IMG/VR virus record: IMGVR_UViG_3300021387_001337 | Location: 6,483-70,482 of that record | Reading direction: 5' to 3' (one strand) | DNA from: a virus | Lineage: Duplodnaviria > Caudoviricetes | Length of the DNA stretch: 64,000 bases | Shown: positions 4,788-55,894 of the stretch, piece by piece | How the letters are laid out: each line of letters opens with the position of its first letter | Numbering within the stretch: the first letter of the stretch is position 1 | Notes under the pieces: model-generated | Database searches by the model: none | The model's input: only the letters and a program-made list of their open reading frames with translations | Told to the model about the DNA's origin: nothing | Made by a program: the position numbers and the translations under genes

Positions 4788-6850
4788 TTCTTCTTTTTAT
4801 TTGGTGTTACCACAATCTCAGGAAGGAATACTTCCCTTGGATAATTGTATCTATAAAAAAGATTCTGTGTGTGACCATCACTATTTGCAGTGTAGATAGA
4901 TAAAGGCACATTTCGTTGTATAAAAGAATTATCGTGCCCTCCTCTGCTATAAGTTATTAGGGGCTCACCTTTTTTAATAGGGTATTTTTTCCCTTTGAAA
5001 GTAGCCGTTCTATCTTGACCAGCAAAGCCTGTTACCATCATTGTATGATAACTGTCCTTATTGGGCACTTTAGAAATGATTAAATTACCAGGAACTACAT
5101 CAGCAGAATCTATAGCTGTATAATTGAATCTTTCAGGATTGGTATGAATAGATTTTGCCCCCTTTACTGGAGTTTGAGGATCTACCCACTGAGTAGCAGA
5201 CAATGTGCAGTTAGAGACCCCAGAAGGAAAATCTTCATATATGTTATCTTTTATCCATCTGAGACTATTTCTAAACAGAGTATTTCCAAGACTTAAAGGC
5301 TCATCTTTAGCTTCATTATAATTAGAATATACCTGATTGGTTCTATGTAGTGCTGCATCTTCCCAATCATATTCTTTTTTACTAATAGGAGAAAATATAG
5401 GAGTTCTTGCAACATAAGTGGCATCAGGTATGGCAATATTCATCTGCTGACTATCCTCAGAAGTACCATCAAACAGATTACCTCCAAAAGCTTTCTTGTA
5501 CTTATTTACCACTCTATGATTGATGGTATAATTAGAAATTACCTGTCCTGGTTTAGAACCTTTTGGAGCCAGTTTAAATGACGGCAAATGGTGAACATCT
5601 GTATAAGACATTTTGGATTTCATCTGTTCTCCATGTTTCTCAGCTTCCCTACGAAGCTTGACAGTATTGTCCCAATAGTCTATAACTAATTCATCATCAT
5701 AGTCTTTTTTCTTTTCTTGAGCATAATTAAAATCATCAAATATCCCCTGACCAGTAACAGCTCCTTGCAAGAACTTGATAGCCTTTCCTGCCTTAGAGAC
5801 TACAGGCAATGCTCCTAGGGACTCCATTACAGCATTATAGGCATTATTGAAAGATGGATTGCTATCATATTGGCTAATAGCTTCCTTGGCATCTCCATAG
5901 CCAGATACACCTGTTGGATCAAGAGCTTTTCCTATAGTGTAGAATAAAGGAGACTGTGCTGCAACCTCATCCCATGTGCTGAGATTAGTTACTTCTTCTC
6001 TTCCATCCCCCTTAGGTCCTCCTGTTAAAAATAAATTACCTCCAAGTCCATGTTTCCAGTGTCTAGAGTTCAAAGCAAAGATAGCCATCTTCTTCTGAGC
6101 AGGAGTACCATGTTCTTTAAACCAAGTGGCAGAATGTCCTGTTCTCTCTTTTAAAGCAGTGAACTTTCCTCTGTTCTCTGGCTTAATATGAATACTGCCA
6201 CCCTCTGCTTTCTTTTTGGGCTGATATTTATAGTAGTTAGGCCTGTTAGGATCATTCATTAATGTGTAGTCTTTCCTAAACTCTAACCATTCCTTCTTTT
6301 CTTCAGGAGTCATATGCCTCTGTTTTCCGCCTTCTTCAGTAACCAATCCTTTATTAAACCAATCAAGTTCATAGCCGACTGTATCATGAGTTTTAGGCTT
6401 CATAAAGTAACCAATACCATCCTTCCCAAAAGCAATACTGTTAGCATGATAGCTTTTATCGGAATTATCATAATGAAACATTCCTTTACTATATGCCTCA
6501 TCAAAGTTCTTAGGTTTTCCGTTTAGTTTCCAATAGAAGTAGGAATCATACTTGTCATTAGGAGTAAACCTTTGATTATCTGGAAGAGTATTTAGATACT
6601 GATTATATTCAGAGTCTGGTGTGATTATAACCTCTCTTCTTTGAGTGAAGGGTACTATAGTATTCACTTCCTCTTTCTCCCTCTTACTTCCTCCCTCAGC
6701 AAACTCATTGTACTTATCTTTTATGTCTTGAAGAGTAGTAATACCATGACGTACTGCTATCTTCATCATTTCAGCCTTTGCTGCAAGGGAAAGATTATCC
6801 CATGCAGTCTTAGGAACTGGTGTATATGTATAACCTTTATACTGCTGCAT
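4784..6850 (-). CDS. Modular virion-associated protein with AxGG linkers and a C-terminal NlpC/P60 (CHAP)-like peptidase domain
   Basis: Likely start is ATG 6850; the track's TTG at 6871 lies inside the promoter. SNCTLSATQW...PGNLIISK...YHTMMVTG gives a Cys/His pair. Repeated FAEGG, KAEGG, HGLGG and KAFGG motifs. Confidence 0.6.
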   Translation of the reverse strand: MQQYKGYTYTPVPKTAWDNLSLAAKAEMMKIAVRHGITTLQDIKDKYNEFAEGGSKREKEEVNTIVPFTQRREVIITPDSEYNQYLNTLPDNQRFTPNDKYDSYFYWKLNGKPKNFDEAYSKGMFHYDNSDKSYHANSIAFGKDGIGYFMKPKTHDTVGYELDWFNKGLVTEEGGKQRHMTPEEKKEWLEFRKDYTLMNDPNRPNYYKYQPKKKAEGGSIHIKPENRGKFTALKERTGHSATWFKEHGTPAQKKMAIFALNSRHWKHGLGGNLFLTGGPKGDGREEVTNLSTWDEVAAQSPLFYTIGKALDPTGVSGYGDAKEAISQYDSNPSFNNAYNAVMESLGALPVVSKAGKAIKFLQGAVTGQGIFDDFNYAQEKKKDYDDELVIDYWDNTVKLRREAEKHGEQMKSKMSYTDVHHLPSFKLAPKGSKPGQVISNYTINHRVVNKYKKAFGGNLFDGTSEDSQQMNIAIPDATYVARTPIFSPISKKEYDWEDAALHRTNQVYSNYNEAKDEPLSLGNTLFRNSLRWIKDNIYEDFPSGVSNCTLSATQWVDPQTPVKGAKSIHTNPERFNYTAIDSADVVPGNLIISKVPNKDSYHTMMVTGFAGQDRTATFKGKKYPIKKGEPLITYSRGGHDNSFIQRNVPLSIYTANSDGHTQNLFYRYNYPREVFLPEIVVTPNKKKK

Positions 6851-8088: not shown

Positions 8089-8120
8089 AAAGAGGGAAGC
8101 TGAGAAGCCTTCCTCTTTTT
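8089..8120 (+). terminator. Intrinsic terminator after the endolysin
   Basis: AAAGAGGGAAGC-TGAGAA-GCCTTCCTCTTTTT. Confidence 0.75.
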
Positions 8121-8166
8121 GTTTGACTACTAACTACCTAACAATAAGGACATTTTGTCCACTATC

Positions 8167-8205
8167 GGCATTGTTTGAAATGCCTCTTAATAGTTTCTAA
8201 CTTTG
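8167..8205 (+). promoter_or_regulatory. Bacteroidota promoter with extended upstream motif
   Basis: TTTG 8174-8177, 20 nt spacer, TAACTTTG 8198-8205; GGCATTGTTT shared with 14957. Confidence 0.75.
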
Positions 8206-8264
8206 CACCATCACTAGTGATATAAATTGTTTTATTGTTTAATTGATTAAAAAGATTAGAAACT

Positions 8265-9248
8265 ATGGCACAAAATGATGGTGTTTATGTTTTTCCAGAT
8301 GCTGTAAGTAAAGCATCAGGTATTGATCCTGGCCTGCTGGCACTGCTGAACCAGAATGGTGGCTTTGGTGGTAATGGCAACTGGATTTGGATTCTCTTCC
8401 TCTGGATGATGTGGGGAGGTAATGGTTTTGGTAATGGCATGAATGGTGGTACTGGTTTTATTTCTAATCAGCTCAACAACAATCAGGGTAGAGACCTGCT
8501 GCTTCAGGCACTGAATGGTAGAGCCGATGCTCTTGGACAAATTGCCCAGATTACCAATACTGGTGTTGAGACTGTGAAGAATGGTATCTTTGCTCTTCAG
8601 AATGCAATTAATCAGGTAGGTTCTCAGGTTGGTATGAGTGGTCTTCAGACTATCAATGCCCTCCAGCTTGGTAATGCTAACCTGAGTCAGCAACTCTGTG
8701 AGTGCTGCTGCAACATGAGGTATGACTTGGCTACTCAGACCAATACTCTTCAGGCTCAGGCTGCACAGAATTATGCTAACTCTCAGTTGCAGAGTGCTCA
8801 GAACCATGCTGCTACTCAGCTTCAGATGGCTCAGATTGAGAGTGCAGACCAGCTGGCAGTATGTCAGCAGACTAATGCACTGACTTCTCAGGCTGCTAAT
8901 AACACCAATAGTATCTTGAGTGCTATTCAGTCTCAGAATGCCATGATTACTGATCAGTTCTGTCAGCTGAAGGAGCGTGAGTTGCAGAATAAGATTGATA
9001 CTCAGGGTGAAATCATTACTCAGCTGAGGAATCAGATTAGCAATGACCATCAGACCCTCCAGTTCAATAGTGCATTCCATGCCCTGGATGACAAGATTGA
9101 TGCTATTGCTGCTAAGCAGCCTAACACTGTTCCTGTTCAGTGGCCTAATCTGACAGCTGTAAATACTACTCCATACATAGGTCAGGGTTACTACCCTTGG
9201 GGTAGTAATGGCTTCAATGGCTGGGGTAATGGTGGTATAGTACTGTAA
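8265..9248 (+). CDS. Hypothetical protein: Gly/Trp-rich hydrophobic N-terminal segment, Q/N-rich coiled coil, CECCC motif
   Basis: GGFGGNGNWIWILFLWMMWGG and QQLCECCC; first gene after the 8167-8205 promoter. Confidence 0.75.
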   Translation: MAQNDGVYVFPDAVSKASGIDPGLLALLNQNGGFGGNGNWIWILFLWMMWGGNGFGNGMNGGTGFISNQLNNNQGRDLLLQALNGRADALGQIAQITNTGVETVKNGIFALQNAINQVGSQVGMSGLQTINALQLGNANLSQQLCECCCNMRYDLATQTNTLQAQAAQNYANSQLQSAQNHAATQLQMAQIESADQLAVCQQTNALTSQAANNTNSILSAIQSQNAMITDQFCQLKERELQNKIDTQGEIITQLRNQISNDHQTLQFNSAFHALDDKIDAIAAKQPNTVPVQWPNLTAVNTTPYIGQGYYPWGSNGFNGWGNGGIVL

Positions 9249-50245: not shown

Positions 50246-51009
50246 CTTTGCAATAATTCATCTATATGGTCAAGTGCTAATTGTAGTAGATCTTTGTTGG
50301 TAACAGAAATAGAAGGAACCTCTGACTTCTTAATAGTAAAAGGACACTCATCAATTTCTACCTTTACCTGCCAGCAACCCCTATGTGAGAAGGGTGCTCC
50401 TTGTTCCAAGAAAAAGGCTGTATTAGGATGGCAGGGAGTATAGATGAGATTGTTGAGACTGCTGACTAGTGCCTTGTTTACAATAAATCTTTGTAGGGCA
50501 TCTTCTTTTGATACACATATACCAGGGTTAATCCTAAGTATAGGTCTTTTATAGTAGTATTTTATCCTGCCTTCACTATCACTTTTCTTTTCCAATATCC
50601 ATGATAGCATCATCAGAGGCTTAAAATTGGAGTTAAAGATACTCCCAAAAGTGCAATAATATGCATCGGCAGCATTAGGAATAGACACCTTTGTAAGATG
50701 TTTTGAGAATTTGGTAGACAAACAATCTCTCATAATTGCATCAAGTGACTTATAATCAGAGCTAAGACCACAAGAATACAATTCAGCTACTAGCATATCA
50801 GTATGCAGTGACTGCCTATTTATATCTAAAAAAGCATCAAAGGCAAACGCAGGCACTTCAATAACATCTTGATTAATGGGAATCTCCATAAATAGAGCAG
50901 AAGTGGTACGAATATTGGGTGTAGTCCTATAGCCATATCTTCTCAATACAGAATTTGAATCACTATCCTGAAAGATTGAACGAATAACAGAGTCAAGTGT
51001 TGCAGCCAT
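50242..51009 (-). CDS. Hypothetical protein coupled to the E1 and UDG genes
   Basis: TAATG overlap with the ThiF stop; ATGA overlap with the UDG start. Confidence 0.75.
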   Translation of the reverse strand: MAATLDSVIRSIFQDSDSNSVLRRYGYRTTPNIRTTSALFMEIPINQDVIEVPAFAFDAFLDINRQSLHTDMLVAELYSCGLSSDYKSLDAIMRDCLSTKFSKHLTKVSIPNAADAYYCTFGSIFNSNFKPLMMLSWILEKKSDSEGRIKYYYKRPILRINPGICVSKEDALQRFIVNKALVSSLNNLIYTPCHPNTAFFLEQGAPFSHRGCWQVKVEIDECPFTIKKSEVPSISVTNKDLLQLALDHIDELLQR

Positions 51010-52295
51010 TACTTAATAGTTTTAAAGATCATATTTTGTGCATCATACTCAGTAAAGAAAGGCAAGTCATAAGGAATGGCTGGATTAAGAGTATTAGCTA
51101 CCCAATTGGTAAATAGGTTTACTATGACTGAACCAATCATACAAGCAAGATAGGTGGTCTGCTTGAGTGAACACTGAGTGGCATCTGCCTCTGCATCAGT
51201 GAAGAGATACTTATGCTGATATTCACTGAGAGCCCATTCGTTATCTCCTGTAATACAAAATACCTGAAGAGTATCTATTGACAATCTGCCATCCAACAGC
51301 AAGCACTTGTATCTTTCCTCATCAGGCTTACTATTTACATGTTCTAACCATTTACTAAAGAAAACTCTTCTAGCTGTCATATTGTCAAAGCCACAAATCA
51401 TAATATCACCAGCCTCATAGTTTTGTGTAAACTTATCTTTAATGGCATAGATACTCCTCATGGTAGTATAGCTACGTATCATATCAGCCATAGCATCTAC
51501 TTTTGCTTTACCTATATCTTCTATACAGTAAAGCTGTCCTGACATGTTAGCTTGTTCTACTATATCATCATCATACATGAAGAGGGCTTCAGGATTCATA
51601 CGGGCTAACTGAAGGACAGTCCAAGAACCAATACCCCCACAACCTGCAAGAATAATACGGGCCTTCTGAATTGCATTATACCATTCAGTGCCTGAAAATC
51701 TGGAGGTAGCGTCATTTATCAGTAGGGTAGAAGAGTTGGGAGCTAGCAGAAGTTCTGTTATAGAAGGCTCTTGCTGTTCTGCTACATCAAATGCCTCCAT
51801 ATCATCCTGAGATACTTCTTCATCAGGATTTTCATTAACACCCTGAACACCCTGATTAGTTCCCTCATGGATAACAGGAACATCTATAACTTCTCCATTT
51901 GGCAAATGAAAGTGTATATCATGAGGTTCCACTCCAGATTCAAGATGCATCCCCATATTAACAGGGGTCACACTTCTAGATTCTATCAGTTCATCCCAGT
52001 CTCTGTCTTCTTCTGCATCAAGATCCCTGCCTTCTCCACTATTCTCATTATACTCGTCAGTATTCTCTCCTTCTTCCTCTTCCTCAACCTCTTCTGCTTC
52101 ATCATACTCTGGCTCTTGGAAACCATTGTCTGCAAGAATGTCATTGAAATCATCAAGAGGAATATTAGAAGATGGAGATTCTCCCTGATGTTGCTGTGAT
52201 ATAACAGATACTGTATCAGAGCTTGCAGGAACAGTTATTTCCCTATTTCCCTCACTAATACCCAGAGAATTCAACCAATCATCTAGATTATTCAT
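51009..52295 (-). CDS. E1-like ThiF/MoeB adenylating enzyme with acidic N-terminal extension
   Basis: GCGGIG, YDDDIVEQANMSGQ, KAKV, CGFDNMTAR, LDGR; candidate catalytic Cys in ATQCSLKQT. Confidence 0.9.
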   Translation of the reverse strand: MNNLDDWLNSLGISEGNREITVPASSDTVSVISQQHQGESPSSNIPLDDFNDILADNGFQEPEYDEAEEVEEEEEGENTDEYNENSGEGRDLDAEEDRDWDELIESRSVTPVNMGMHLESGVEPHDIHFHLPNGEVIDVPVIHEGTNQGVQGVNENPDEEVSQDDMEAFDVAEQQEPSITELLLAPNSSTLLINDATSRFSGTEWYNAIQKARIILAGCGGIGSWTVLQLARMNPEALFMYDDDIVEQANMSGQLYCIEDIGKAKVDAMADMIRSYTTMRSIYAIKDKFTQNYEAGDIMICGFDNMTARRVFFSKWLEHVNSKPDEERYKCLLLDGRLSIDTLQVFCITGDNEWALSEYQHKYLFTDAEADATQCSLKQTTYLACMIGSVIVNLFTNWVANTLNPAIPYDLPFFTEYDAQNMIFKTIK

Positions 52296-53601
52296 AAATG
52301 TAACGCATTAAAACTTCTTTATAATCATCCATATAAACATTTACACCATCAGGAGCATACTGATATAGTTCAGTATATATAGCAGAGGCAACTTTACTCT
52401 GAATTAACTCCCAGTCGTCAATAATTTCTGAAGGAATGTCATCATCATCAATCAAATATTGATTTGTCATAAACTCTACTATAAACTCCTTCCACTCATT
52501 AAACTGAGAAGATTCATTGCCATCAGGTCCAAATATTTCCCCATACTTCTTATTCATCCATCGGTTTATCCATTGTTTCAGGTCTATGTTATCACTTACT
52601 ATAAGGGAGCAAGTAACCATTTGACAGACTAACTTATGAATAATAGTTGGATCTGGTTCCCATTTAGAAGTATCTATCTTACCCATTTCCTCCTCAGAGA
52701 AGAGTGTAGGCTCTTGATTAAATGTTTCTTTAGTTTCCGCAGCTTTCTTTTCATTCTGCCAGTCACGGAAGGAATAGTCCTCATCAAAATCCCTAAGTGC
52801 TGGATTAATTATCTTAGTACCATTAGGAATCCAAGGACTTTTGCTATTGTTAGAAGTGTTAACAGTAGGAGTTACAGGAGTTACTACAGCCTTTTTCTTC
52901 TTAGCCTCAATCTCATCAAATCTTGTATCAAGATAGGCCAAAGGATTGTCTACCTTCTCTACTTGAATATCCAGCATAAAGTACTCAATAACTTCTTTAT
53001 CAATTATCTGAGTACTTTCAGACATAGTATCTTCTCCAGTTTTGATAGTCCCTTCTCCAAAGAACTCATAACTTGTGCCAAGAGATTTAGTTACTACTTC
53101 AGACTTGGATTGAATCTTTCTTGTTAAAGCAGCTACATAAGTACCTCTGGTATCTACTACAAGTGATACAAAGCAGTTAGTATCATTACCTTCACTCCTT
53201 ATAGTATTAAAGTCTGTCCCACTTATAAACGCACCTAGTTGGTGATGTGAATGCACCAAGCCTATATCACAACCAAAGAGATCAATATTATCAGCAATAT
53301 ATCCAACCACACTTTCATCCATCTTAAAGTCAGTGAAAGTGCCAGAGCCTAAATCCATAGGGAATATGTCCTGACAGTGAATCTCTAAGTCATCTTGCTT
53401 AAAACTGCCAGTATGATTATAGAATAATACTCCAGACCATTCAGTAGATGGAAACTTGCGGATAAGATATCTGATTTTTTCTTCTACATTGCGAGGTACA
53501 AAGAGTTTATAGGTAGTAGACGCTTTGATGAGTGGGGGCAGGGAGGGCTGTTGCTGAAGAGCTGGAGCTAGCATCCTGCTGGTGTTGTCTTGTATATTCA
53601 T
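52288..53601 (-). CDS. JAB/JAMM metallo-isopeptidase
   Basis: TEWSG...HSHHQLGAFISGTD is an exact E...HxH-x7-S-x2-D motif. Confidence 0.9.
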   Translation of the reverse strand: MNIQDNTSRMLAPALQQQPSLPPLIKASTTYKLFVPRNVEEKIRYLIRKFPSTEWSGVLFYNHTGSFKQDDLEIHCQDIFPMDLGSGTFTDFKMDESVVGYIADNIDLFGCDIGLVHSHHQLGAFISGTDFNTIRSEGNDTNCFVSLVVDTRGTYVAALTRKIQSKSEVVTKSLGTSYEFFGEGTIKTGEDTMSESTQIIDKEVIEYFMLDIQVEKVDNPLAYLDTRFDEIEAKKKKAVVTPVTPTVNTSNNSKSPWIPNGTKIINPALRDFDEDYSFRDWQNEKKAAETKETFNQEPTLFSEEEMGKIDTSKWEPDPTIIHKLVCQMVTCSLIVSDNIDLKQWINRWMNKKYGEIFGPDGNESSQFNEWKEFIVEFMTNQYLIDDDDIPSEIIDDWELIQSKVASAIYTELYQYAPDGVNVYMDDYKEVLMRYIYE

Positions 53602-55894
53602 TTGTATAATGATAATTTATGATTTTAAGAATGTTATTCAATATATACATGGAGAGACTATGACTGAGCACAATACTCTCCTGAGGAGTGAATTCAGTAG
53701 AACCGCTGATTTTCAAAGTGACATCATTACCCTTGAAGGTGCATACTTTCTTGCCTATATAGTCTTCCAACCTCAAGTTGTCCAGACTTCTGGAACCATT
53801 AGGATCAAAGAACTTGCCTCCAGCTACTATAGCACGATTAATAATTTGCCTATCGAACATTCTAGAAACAAGACTTTTCTCTACATAGTATTTATTAATC
53901 CAGTCTATAAAAGCATTACTAACATCAAGAATATATTCATAATATGACATACCAACTATAAAATGATCCTGCTGATAACTAATTGCTAGATGTCCATTCT
54001 TTAGGTAATATTGAATGAATTTCTGAAGGCCTGCCCTAGTGAGGGTATGCTCAACTTGATTTAGTATATTACCTGCTTCACACTCATTAAATCTATTATA
54101 GTCCCTCAGATTTGAATTAATATTGACTTCCTCAAGATGTCTGTAAGGCACCCCACTAAGAGATTCTACAGTAACATACCTAGATAGTTCTTCACAAAAA
54201 AGCATCCATTTAATTTCATCAAAGCCCTCGGAGAAAGCACTTTGCAGACTATGAATGGTATCTTTGATGGGCCCTGTACCTAAGCATGGGTCTTGAAAAA
54301 CTGTCAAATCATCCTTCGGAATACTACAAATATGAGACATTTTGTTATCACTAAGGCTCTTTATCCTTAGTATCTTGTTTTTATATACTTACTGTATCTG
54401 TTATATATGTGGTATAACAATCTTTTGTTTATACTTTTACAAAAAATTTAGGAATTATGAAAAAAGTACAATTAAAAGATTTTGATTCTCAAATTGTCAA
54501 ATTGAAGACAGACGGTCTTAGTTATGAAGAAATTGCTAGTATTTTACATTTAAAGAAAAATTCAGTTGTAGCCTATATAAAAAGGCTTTATCCAGAACTC
54601 AAGACTTTAAATATGATTAGAGGCAATACTTCTTATTTCCATAATATAGATAGTTATGCCAAAGCCTATTTACTAGGTTTTATAGCTGCTGATGGGGCTA
54701 TAGTTAAGCAACGCAACACTACATATTTAACAATAACTATTAACTATGAAGATAAATCTGTTCTTGAATTTTTACAATCGGAACTACAAGATCATAGAAA
54801 ATTAACAGAAATCATAAAAGCATCTTCTTTTGATGCTAATAAAAAGATTCACCATATTCGTTTTTGTATAGGTTCATCTGAGATAGCCGAAGATTTACAA
54901 AACATTGGTATAACTCCAAATAAAAGCTTAACTATGGGTAACATTATTACTAATATACCCTTGAACTATAGAGATGCTTTTATTATTGGTTATTTTGATG
55001 GTGATGGAAGTGTTAGTAGAATACAACATTCTCCTAATAATAGGAGTTTAATCATACAGATAAGGGGAACATTCTCCTTTTTAGAAGGGATTTCCAATCA
55101 TCTATGTATTCCAACTTCTTTTATTAAACAATATGATTCAATATCACAATTAAATATAACAAATAAGAAGTATATATCCAGATTTTTCCAATGTTATGCA
55201 AACTTACCTTTTTACTTTAAAAGGAAATATGATAAGTTTGATAATTGGATTTGTCCAGATAAAAGGTATAAACAAGTTCAGACTATATCATCATCTGTAG
55301 CATAAAACTACAGAGCTGGGCACTCGTGTCACTATTATATTCTGCAATTAGCAGTTTCAAGTGTTAGTCGTTGAACCTTCCAAAGGTTTTTGCACCTAAG
55401 GCTTGGCTGCTGATTGTCTGCTTTTTCAGATTTTCCAGCAATTCACCCAGTTTAAACTGCACTCTTAGTTAATGCATATAATCACAAACCCACTGTTCTA
55501 GGGTGTAAGTTGATCTATTGAGAGTAAAACCTCTATACTCTACAGGAATCATGCCTTTGGCATCAAGTGTTATTTTTGCATACAAGTCATATATTAATAT
55601 AGACCTATCATTTTCATTAGTTACCTTGACTGTAGGCCAATACACTAAGATAAAAGGATGGATGCCTGCATAACTTCTGGCAACACCATTGAATGTTCTG
55701 CCATCTGCTTCATAACCACTACCATCCTCTCTCATAGGAATCTCAGCAACAGCAAAGGATTCAGCTATAGTATCATCATCTGGAAGACCTTGAAGGTCAA
55801 CAAACCCCTCTCCAAAGTAATTTTGGAATACCTCATAGACATTATAGACATCAGTAAAAGCCTTATGCCTGAAATCATTGATTGTGTAAAACAT
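53507..55894 (-). CDS. Prokaryotic E2 (UBC-fold)-like protein, spliced: exon 1 55472-55894 plus exon 2 53507-54337 (417 aa)
   Basis: Joining gives DYMH|SHICSIPKDDLTVFQDPCLG, an E2-type HxH...C-L-G active site; the frame is preserved exactly. Confidence 0.8.
54408..54439 (+). promoter_or_regulatory. Candidate internal promoter for the antisense endonuclease
   Basis: TGTG-N20-TACTTTTA, 17 nt before the ATG; one mismatch in each element. Confidence 0.4.
54457..55305 (+). CDS. Double-motif LAGLIDADG homing endonuclease, antisense to the host intron
   Basis: YLLGFIAADG and FIIGYFDGDG; N-terminal HTH-like LSYEEIASILHLKKNSV; very AT-rich. Confidence 0.92.
   Translation: MKKVQLKDFDSQIVKLKTDGLSYEEIASILHLKKNSVVAYIKRLYPELKTLNMIRGNTSYFHNIDSYAKAYLLGFIAADGAIVKQRNTTYLTITINYEDKSVLEFLQSELQDHRKLTEIIKASSFDANKKIHHIRFCIGSSEIAEDLQNIGITPNKSLTMGNIITNIPLNYRDAFIIGYFDGDGSVSRIQHSPNNRSLIIQIRGTFSFLEGISNHLCIPTSFIKQYDSISQLNITNKKYISRFFQCYANLPFYFKRKYDKFDNWICPDKRYKQVQTISSSVA

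Follow-up and report, generated by a model that had tools for sequence, protein, structure and literature searches.

In the 64,000-nt stretch of viral DNA analysed here (the window; positions 6,483 to 70,482 of IMG/VR record IMGVR_UViG_3300021387_001337), two open reading frames (ORFs) on the minus strand, 55469-55894 and 53507-54340, raise the question of whether they are separate genes or the halves of one, and of what the DNA between them is. An initial annotation had read them as a single E2-like gene with a group I intron inside its active-site HxH motif. Our best explanation, held with considerable confidence as a whole, is that a mobile group I intron of 1,134 nt (54338-55471, minus strand) interrupts a homologue of Bacteroides phage crAss001 gene gp78 in a crAss-like (Crassvirales) phage, where it separates the His141 codon of a Y-x-H-S-H motif from the codon for Ser142. 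The intron carries a homing endonuclease gene (HEG) antisense in its P9 loop, its lineage is found at two sites with retuned guides, and the interrupted gene most likely encodes an E2-like protein.

Two reading frames, one gene and a group I intron

When the two ORFs were searched separately, both matched the same proteins of ~400-420 aa. The first (141 aa) ends in ...EQWVCDYMH and is directly followed by TAA, and the second starts with MSHICSIPK.... Joining CAT (55472) to TCT (54337) in silico resulted in a 417-aa protein that is collinear with 119 intronless full-length relatives and ungapped at the junction, GATTATATGCAT^TCTCATATT (that is, 55472^54337; the caret marks the splice site here and below). 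In the relatives, the junction reads Y-[M/L]-H^S-H-[I/V], with PCLGxGP 15 residues on. The gene is thus laid out as follows.

55472-55894, minus strand: exon 1 of the gp78-like (putatively E2-like) gene, 141 codons ending ...DYMH, corresponding to residues 1-141 of the ~400-420-aa relatives at 42-68% identity.
54338-55471, minus strand: group I intron, 1,134 nt, family RF00028, with bounds taken from 119 intronless relatives and ten homologous introns.
53507-54337, minus strand: exon 2 of the gp78-like gene, SHICSIPK...PCLGTGPI..., 276 codons plus stop, matching the ~400-420-aa relatives over 100% of its length.

Alignment of 122 family sequences (alignment A1) showed that S142, H143, C159, G161, G163 and P164 are invariant and that H141 is present in at least 90%. 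The joined window protein retains all 25 invariant columns and 64 of the 65 near-invariant ones, which argues that it is not the product of a decaying pseudogene. Because the first codon of the intron is an in-frame TAA (UAA in RNA), full-length protein would be made only after splicing. About 95% of the family representatives are intron-free at this site. The union of the two ORFs, the exact coordinates of the 1,134-nt insertion, the contiguous H^S-H motif at the join and its conservation, all proposed by the initial annotation, were therefore borne out by the relatives, and the TAA at the intron start supports the proposed dependence on splicing.

The group I assignment was supported as well. 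A search with Rfam models matched RF00028 on 55495-55264 (minus strand) with 69.7 bits (gathering score 50; E 1.3e-15) over model positions 1-253, the whole model. A score above the family threshold marks the conserved catalytic core of group I introns, P3-P8 with the P, Q, R and S elements and the G-binding helix P7. This was the sole Rfam match in the 64-kb window and in the entire 70.5-kb viral record (record-wide E 3.4e-19). Four elements of the intron RNA are referred to below.

55264-55495, minus strand: ribozyme core, comprising P1-P8, P7′ and the 5′ strand of P9; the extent of the Rfam match, including the last 24 nt of exon 1.
55458-55465, minus strand: internal guide sequence, with AGA for P10 and GUGCA for P1, co-varying with the exons across 11 copies.
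54374-54380, minus strand: 3′ strand of P9, AAACAAG; both P9 strands are invariant in the copies examined and lie adjacent in a 266-nt homologous intron (contig L129).
54351-54370, minus strand: P9.1-type hairpin CUAAGG-AUAAAGAG-CCUUAG, followed by the tail UGAUAACAAAAUG, which ends in the terminal G.

In P1, the exon end UGCAU (55476-55472) pairs with the guide GUGCA (55462-55458), with a U55472.G55462 wobble at the splice site, and in P10 three base pairs join AGA (55465-55463) to UCU of the 3′ exon (54337-54335). P3-P8 follow the Rfam alignment, and P9 is a long-range helix of CUUGUUU (55276-55270) and AAACAAG (54380-54374) that encloses the endonuclease cassette; the intron closes with a terminal G at 54338. 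Among the homologous introns, the P9.1-type hairpin occurs with five distinct, fully complementary stems around one conserved loop, and RNAalifold analysis of four copies gave 65 core pairs, of which 13 show compensatory changes. With the P1 wobble, P10, the terminal G and a frame restored on removal, the group I identity and the exact boundaries are well supported at the sequence level. From the structure and covariation, we infer that the intron is spliced in vivo.

In the mechanism we propose, the transcript would fold into the group I core and form P1 by pairing UGCAU at the end of the exon with the guide GUGCA, placing the U.G wobble at the cut. Guanosine would then attack the 5′ splice site, P10 (UCU with AGA) and the terminal G at 54338 would align the 3′ exon, and ligation of the exons would yield the mRNA for the 417-aa protein. 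In unspliced RNA, translation would stop at the UAA that forms the first intron codon.

One intron lineage at two sites of one operon

Copies of the intron were recovered by pattern and protein look-ups in other crAss-like phage contigs (designated by L numbers). Ten further members of the lineage were found. Three occupy the same site of the same gene as in the window (hereafter the E2 site; L001, L127 and L130), and the other seven interrupt the JAB/MPN gene next to it, where they split the JAMM motif into H and SH (GLMH^SHDQMSTFFSGTD; L004, L122, L125, L126, L128, L129 and L131, for example L004:1715-2880 on the minus strand and L122:~1952-2992 on the plus strand). Judging by their N-termini, the database proteins P0020, P0027, P0034 and P0057 come from four further copies of the gene with an intron at the E2 site. 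RF00028 matched the L001 copy with 60.8 bits and the L129 copy with 69.0 bits. At the gathering threshold, it missed the L004 intron, despite a core 95-100% identical to copies scoring 61-69 bits; the score is probably lowered by the long P9 insert, and L004 was counted as an intron because of its alignment to the other copies. A broader core pattern was found in more than 119 viral contigs; as a general phage group I signature, it served only as a screening pool. Three contigs, L018, L064 and L084, contain two matches to this pattern each, 0.5-1.3 kb apart on the same strand, which suggests tandem or twin introns.

Core identity across the eleven copies is 79-100%, against only 28-54% for the host proteins, as would be expected of a mobile element. 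Between the E2 site and the JAB site, core identity reaches 95-97%. The guides track the exons at both splice sites. Three P1 combinations with compensating changes occur among the 11 copies: exon AUGCAU with guide GUGCAU in most copies (five of these pairs, UGCAU with GUGCA, form in the window), AUCCAU with GUGGAU in L122, and GUGCAU with GUGCAC in L125 and L128. Likewise, P10 pairs exon UCACA with guide UGUGA at the JAB site, UCU with AGA in the window, and GUC with GAC in L001 and L130.

Both sites encode H^SH, and the DNA they share is (A/G)T(G/C)CAT^(TCN/AGT)CA(T/C). The JAB site of the window is intronless and reads GGCTTGGTGCAT^TCACATCAC. Conversely, the E2-type site of L122 (~891-914) is empty and its JAB site is filled; the empty site reads AATTATATGCAT^TCTCATGTA, with the E2-type TCTCAT after AATTATATGCAT^, and shares the 12-nt core TATATGCAT^TCTCAT with the occupied site of the window (55461-55484, 54326-54337). 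The E2-like gene is intron-free in genomes with a JAB-site intron, and none of the genomes examined has both sites occupied; double occupancy would create direct repeats of ~1 kb separated by ~1.3 kb, which selection might disfavour.

Neither the core tree (182 nt) nor the endonuclease tree (7 proteins) had resolved branching, and a single clade of E2-site copies was not rejected (p-AU 0.106 for the core and 0.39 for the endonuclease). Because of this lack of resolution, the number of site switches can be given only as at least one, and a FastTree grouping of the window with L122 is not to be relied on. On balance, we favour a history with at least one move of the lineage, and perhaps two, from one to the other of two adjacent, unrelated operon genes, both of which encode His^Ser-His with nearly identical DNA (ATGCAT^TCNCAT). 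Its P1 and P10 guides would have been retuned after each move, it seemingly never occupies both sites in one genome, and its antisense HEG uses the ribozyme core as coding sequence.

The candidate agent of this mobility is encoded on the opposite strand of the intron.

54457-55305, plus strand: LAGLIDADG HEG, 282 aa, antisense to the intron and inside the P9 loop, with an N-terminal helix-turn-helix (HTH) and two LAGLIDADG motifs.

The 282-aa ORF matches Pfam LAGLIDADG_3 (8.9e-11) and Hom_end (5.4e-5) as well as phrog_4645 (2.1e-43), and carries in one chain the two motifs LLGFIAADGAI and IIGYFDGDGSV, both with acidic residues. The predicted endonuclease presumably cleaves intronless alleles and so drives homing. 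The HEG is antisense in every HEG-bearing copy of the lineage. It has no stop of its own inside the cassette and reads on to a TAA in the P8 loop, so that its last ~14 codons (~45 nt) and stop (window 55262-55305) are read from the strand complementary to P8, to the 3′ strand of P7 and to the 5′ strand of P9. The conservation of this tail (...KQVQTISS...) in homologues is presumably due to the ribozyme. The P9 loop is the insertion point of the HEG, because the 266-nt L129 copy (8106-8371, minus strand), which lacks the HEG, matches the 1,166-nt L004 intron exactly in its core; between these two, the ~900-nt endonuclease cassette is cleanly gained or lost in the P9 loop. In L001, the cassette is reduced to a decayed remnant.

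The interrupted protein, its operon and the alternatives

In crAss001, the homologue of the interrupted gene is annotated as hypothetical. It follows gp80 (primase) and gp79 (hypothetical) and precedes gp77 (metalloprotease domain), gp76 (ThiF), gp75 and gp74 (UDG). The gp78-like gene always lies between a Ubl-like gene (Ubl, ubiquitin-like protein) and JAB and E1 genes, and in the window the latter two are directly downstream.

52288-53601, minus strand: JAB/MPN-like gene (HSHH...SGTD), intronless in the window; weak Prok-JAB match, with the crAss001 gp77 homologue annotated as a metalloprotease.
51009-52295, minus strand: ThiF/E1-like adenylyltransferase gene; Pfam ThiF 6.2e-19, PADLOC E1-E2 (Cap2-type) down to 6.6e-12 and BilD 1.9e-6.

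The ThiF/E1-like protein has an N-terminal extension of ~190 residues that is acidic and poorly conserved (alignment A5), with the Rossmann domain starting at about residue 200. In contig L124 (MT774378.1, uncultured phage cr106_1; 2692-3895), an annotated HNH endonuclease gene apparently divides the gp79 homologue, a putative Ubl gene, into two small ORFs; this may be another intron in the same operon.

AlphaFold2 models of an intronless relative of the gp78-like protein reached a pLDDT of 91.2 at full length and 93.7 for residues 1-221 (the N-domain). UBC, UEV and RWD folds made up the majority of each hit list obtained with the N-domain model, both among the top 50 of a wide structure search independent of Foldseek and among the top 23 of a re-alignment. 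The matches include the BRISC UEV (Z 6.2), Ubc8 (Z 5.3, 122 residues aligned), the Tsg101 UEV (Z 5.3), Ubc9 (Z 5.0), Atg10 (Z 4.7) and the E2 domain of Cap2 (Z 4.6); overall, E2/UEV/RWD matches lie at Z 4.0-6.2 with 105-136 residues aligned and an rmsd of ~4 A, compared with a trusted level of Z ~8. A UBC fold consists of an N-terminal helix, a four-stranded antiparallel sheet and subsequent helices. In the ESM Atlas, the lead was weak: one cluster with Prok-E2_D on 11% of its members (score 0.79). In the alignment and the predicted model, invariant H143 is followed 16 residues on by invariant C159, both after beta-4 and before the next helix. A His and then a Cys after strand 4 is how prokaryotic E2-like domains are defined (PMC1779556). 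A functional link to an E1 and a Ubl, in the form of a thioester relay, is suggested by gene order. Taken together, we consider it reasonably likely that the host protein is E2-like, in which case it would most probably fill the E2 position in a Ubl-E2-JAB-E1 operon.

Separately from these folds, residues 1-81 of the N-domain (P0134, from L002:3078-3740) also match small DNA-binding domains, namely that of pSK1 Par (Z 5.9, 52 residues, rmsd 2.4 A) and those of RacA and GlnR. Part of these residues forms an insert in the putative UBC-like fold.

Several results weigh against the explanation advanced here. For the host protein, structural matches at Z 4-6 are common by the search method's own standard, and Foldseek searches of the PDB with the full-length and N-domain models returned nothing at E ≤ 0.001; the best Foldseek match, at E ~0.1, was CENP-O, itself an RWD fold. 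No UQ_con or Prok-E2 match was obtained in Pfam for the 122 members at E ≤ 10, and there was no E2 match in NCBIfam, PADLOC or a profile search of PDB sequences, the last of which was empty. For the intron, P1 (5 bp) and P10 (3 bp) of the window are the weakest among the 11 copies, and its core is the most diverged, at 79-85% identity to the others. For the antisense HEG, no promoter was found, with a sigma-70 scan at chance level (11 found versus 9.6 expected). By eye, the region upstream of 54457 contains no exact Bacteroides TAnnTTTG element.

The alternative that fares best accepts a genuine group I intron and places it in a gene that is not an E2. The protein would then be a non-catalytic scaffold of UEV/RWD type, or a new kind of His/Cys enzyme or metal site, with a UBC/RWD-like sandwich and still alongside JAB and ThiF proteins. 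This would account for the failure of E2 sequence models on all 122 family members and for the empty profile search, and it suits the weak structural matches, in which UEV, RWD, CENP-O and Mediator folds appear as often as catalytic E2s. The protein is also 417 aa long and includes a C-terminal domain of ~200 aa with no recognised fold as well as an insert of 40 residues, and the neighbouring JAMM protease likewise has H-S-H, there as its metal-binding signature. It is less easily squared with the invariant Cys159, which is part of an invariant PCLGxGP loop and follows the invariant His143 by 16 residues, in the His-then-Cys order that follows beta-4 in classical and prokaryotic E2-like domains (PMC1779556), with the constant position of the gene between a Ubl-like gene and JAB and E1 genes, or with UBC-type folds being the commonest class in three independent structural lists. 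We therefore regard a non-E2 host as possible and the less likely choice.

The name E2 given by the initial annotation is partly supported, by a resemblance to UBC/UEV/RWD folds that stays below the trusted level (Z 4-6), by the invariant Cys and by the JAB and ThiF/E1 neighbours, but no E2 sequence model matches. Of the "active-site HxH", the motif proved invariant; its active-site role would follow by positional analogy to HPN only, which we consider a reasonable analogy.

A different proposal concerns the role of the intron. Its removal, possibly hindered by antisense HEG transcription, could time or throttle the E2-like protein and with it the Ubl cascade. The HEG is indeed antisense in every HEG-bearing copy and overlaps the ribozyme core, the UAA at the intron start makes splicing strictly required for full-length protein, and the lineage targets only two genes, both in one operon. 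Such regulation is nevertheless improbable given that ~95% of family representatives are intron-free at the site, that one copy without the HEG and one with a decayed HEG exist, and that this sporadic pattern is the one a selfish element would leave.

It is least probable that the insertion no longer splices, leaving a pseudogene or two polypeptides (141 aa, and 276 aa from the ATG that ends the intron): the window intron is the most diverged copy with the shortest P1 and P10, and an ATG lies exactly at its 3′ end, which is why gene callers start an ORF there, but both exons are intact with every invariant residue kept, the core matches the full Rfam model above the gathering threshold, P1 and P10 fit these particular exons, the break falls inside the loop carrying one domain's invariant motif, and a downstream start is no general feature, given that UUG or AAG stands in place of AUG at the intron end in other same-site copies.

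Relation to known introns and significance

The group I intron in the gp78-like gene belongs to the same Rfam family, RF00028, as the introns of T4 td, nrdB and nrdD (sunY) and the intron in the dUTPase region of crAssphage (Carjivirus communis). Over ~180 nt, its core shares 74% identity with the crAssphage intron; in prototype crAssphage, the dUTPase gene gp34 has as its neighbour gp35, annotated as an HNH endonuclease encoded by an intron. Like these introns, it interrupts a phage gene at a conserved motif, begins with an in-frame stop, carries an endonuclease gene in a peripheral loop and is sporadically distributed. In nrdD/sunY introns, too, the 3′ splice site is far from the core, owing to the endonuclease gene in a peripheral loop. 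In contrast to the T4 and crAssphage introns, the host is a putative E2-like gene and not a DNA-metabolism gene, the endonuclease is a LAGLIDADG protein with an N-terminal HTH instead of an HNH or GIY-YIG enzyme, and the HEG, encoded on the other strand, takes its C-terminal codons from ~45 nt of the ribozyme core in antisense.

Within the Crassvirales, group I introns with LAGLIDADG or other endonucleases have been described as interrupting conserved genes (Yutin et al. 2021, PMC7886860). ThiF, MPN/JAB and ubiquitin-like genes are not mentioned in that study (PMC7886860), and the intron described here differs in its host, a crAss001 gp78 homologue in the window and a gp77 homologue in other phages. 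The initial annotation had called the host unusual. In the literature searched we found no report of an intron in a gp78-like gene, in keeping with that view, but group I introns as such were already known from crAss-like phages (PMC7886860). Antisense HEGs have a precedent in nuclear ribosomal DNA, where group I introns, for example at position L2066, carry antisense His-Cys box HEGs (PMC9548176). There, as in the window, the HEG is opposite the intron RNA, but those introns are eukaryotic, their enzymes are of the His-Cys box type and spliceosomal introns are involved. The literature searched held no phage precedent for an antisense HEG, which does not prove absence.

The neighbourhood resembles the type 6d Ubl-E2-JAB-E1 operons, the later Bil systems, and CBASS Cap2/Cap3 in combining Ubl-like, gp78-like, JAB and ThiF/E1 genes with a fifth gene. 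Its E1 matches Cap2-type E1-E2 and BilD models, and a conserved His precedes a conserved Cys in a putatively UBC-like fold. Unlike known E2s, the gp78-like protein has no detectable sequence similarity to any E2 model, is 417 aa long with an extra C-terminal domain, and spaces His and Cys by 16 residues, compared with ~8-10 in E2s. The operon also lies beside replication genes in a lytic crAss-like phage, not in a bacterial defence island. Type 6d of the prokaryotic Ubl-E2-JAB-E1 operons was defined by Iyer, Burroughs and Aravind in 2006 (PMC1779556), and our literature search found nothing specific on a Ubl/E2 reading of crAss-like gp76-79.

The element is hence of a known kind, and distinctive in its host gene, its occupancy of two sites and an antisense HEG that overlaps the ribozyme core. 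In annotation, a gene conserved across the Crassvirales and labelled hypothetical is called as two unrelated ORFs in intron-bearing genomes, as is the JAB gene in other phages, and its conserved HSH...PCLG motif is missed because of that split. By its position, the intron singles out His-Ser-His as the DNA under the strongest constraint in the gene and thereby offers a pointer for mutagenesis. A single lineage at two heterologous sites sharing ~12 nt is a convenient natural system for the spread of group I introns to new sites. If the two-site history is true, it would document, as few natural cases do, the ectopic transposition of a group I intron and offer a test of reverse splicing versus relaxed endonuclease specificity. 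For the Ubl operon of the phage, the sequence predicts that full-length gp78-like protein depends on RNA splicing.

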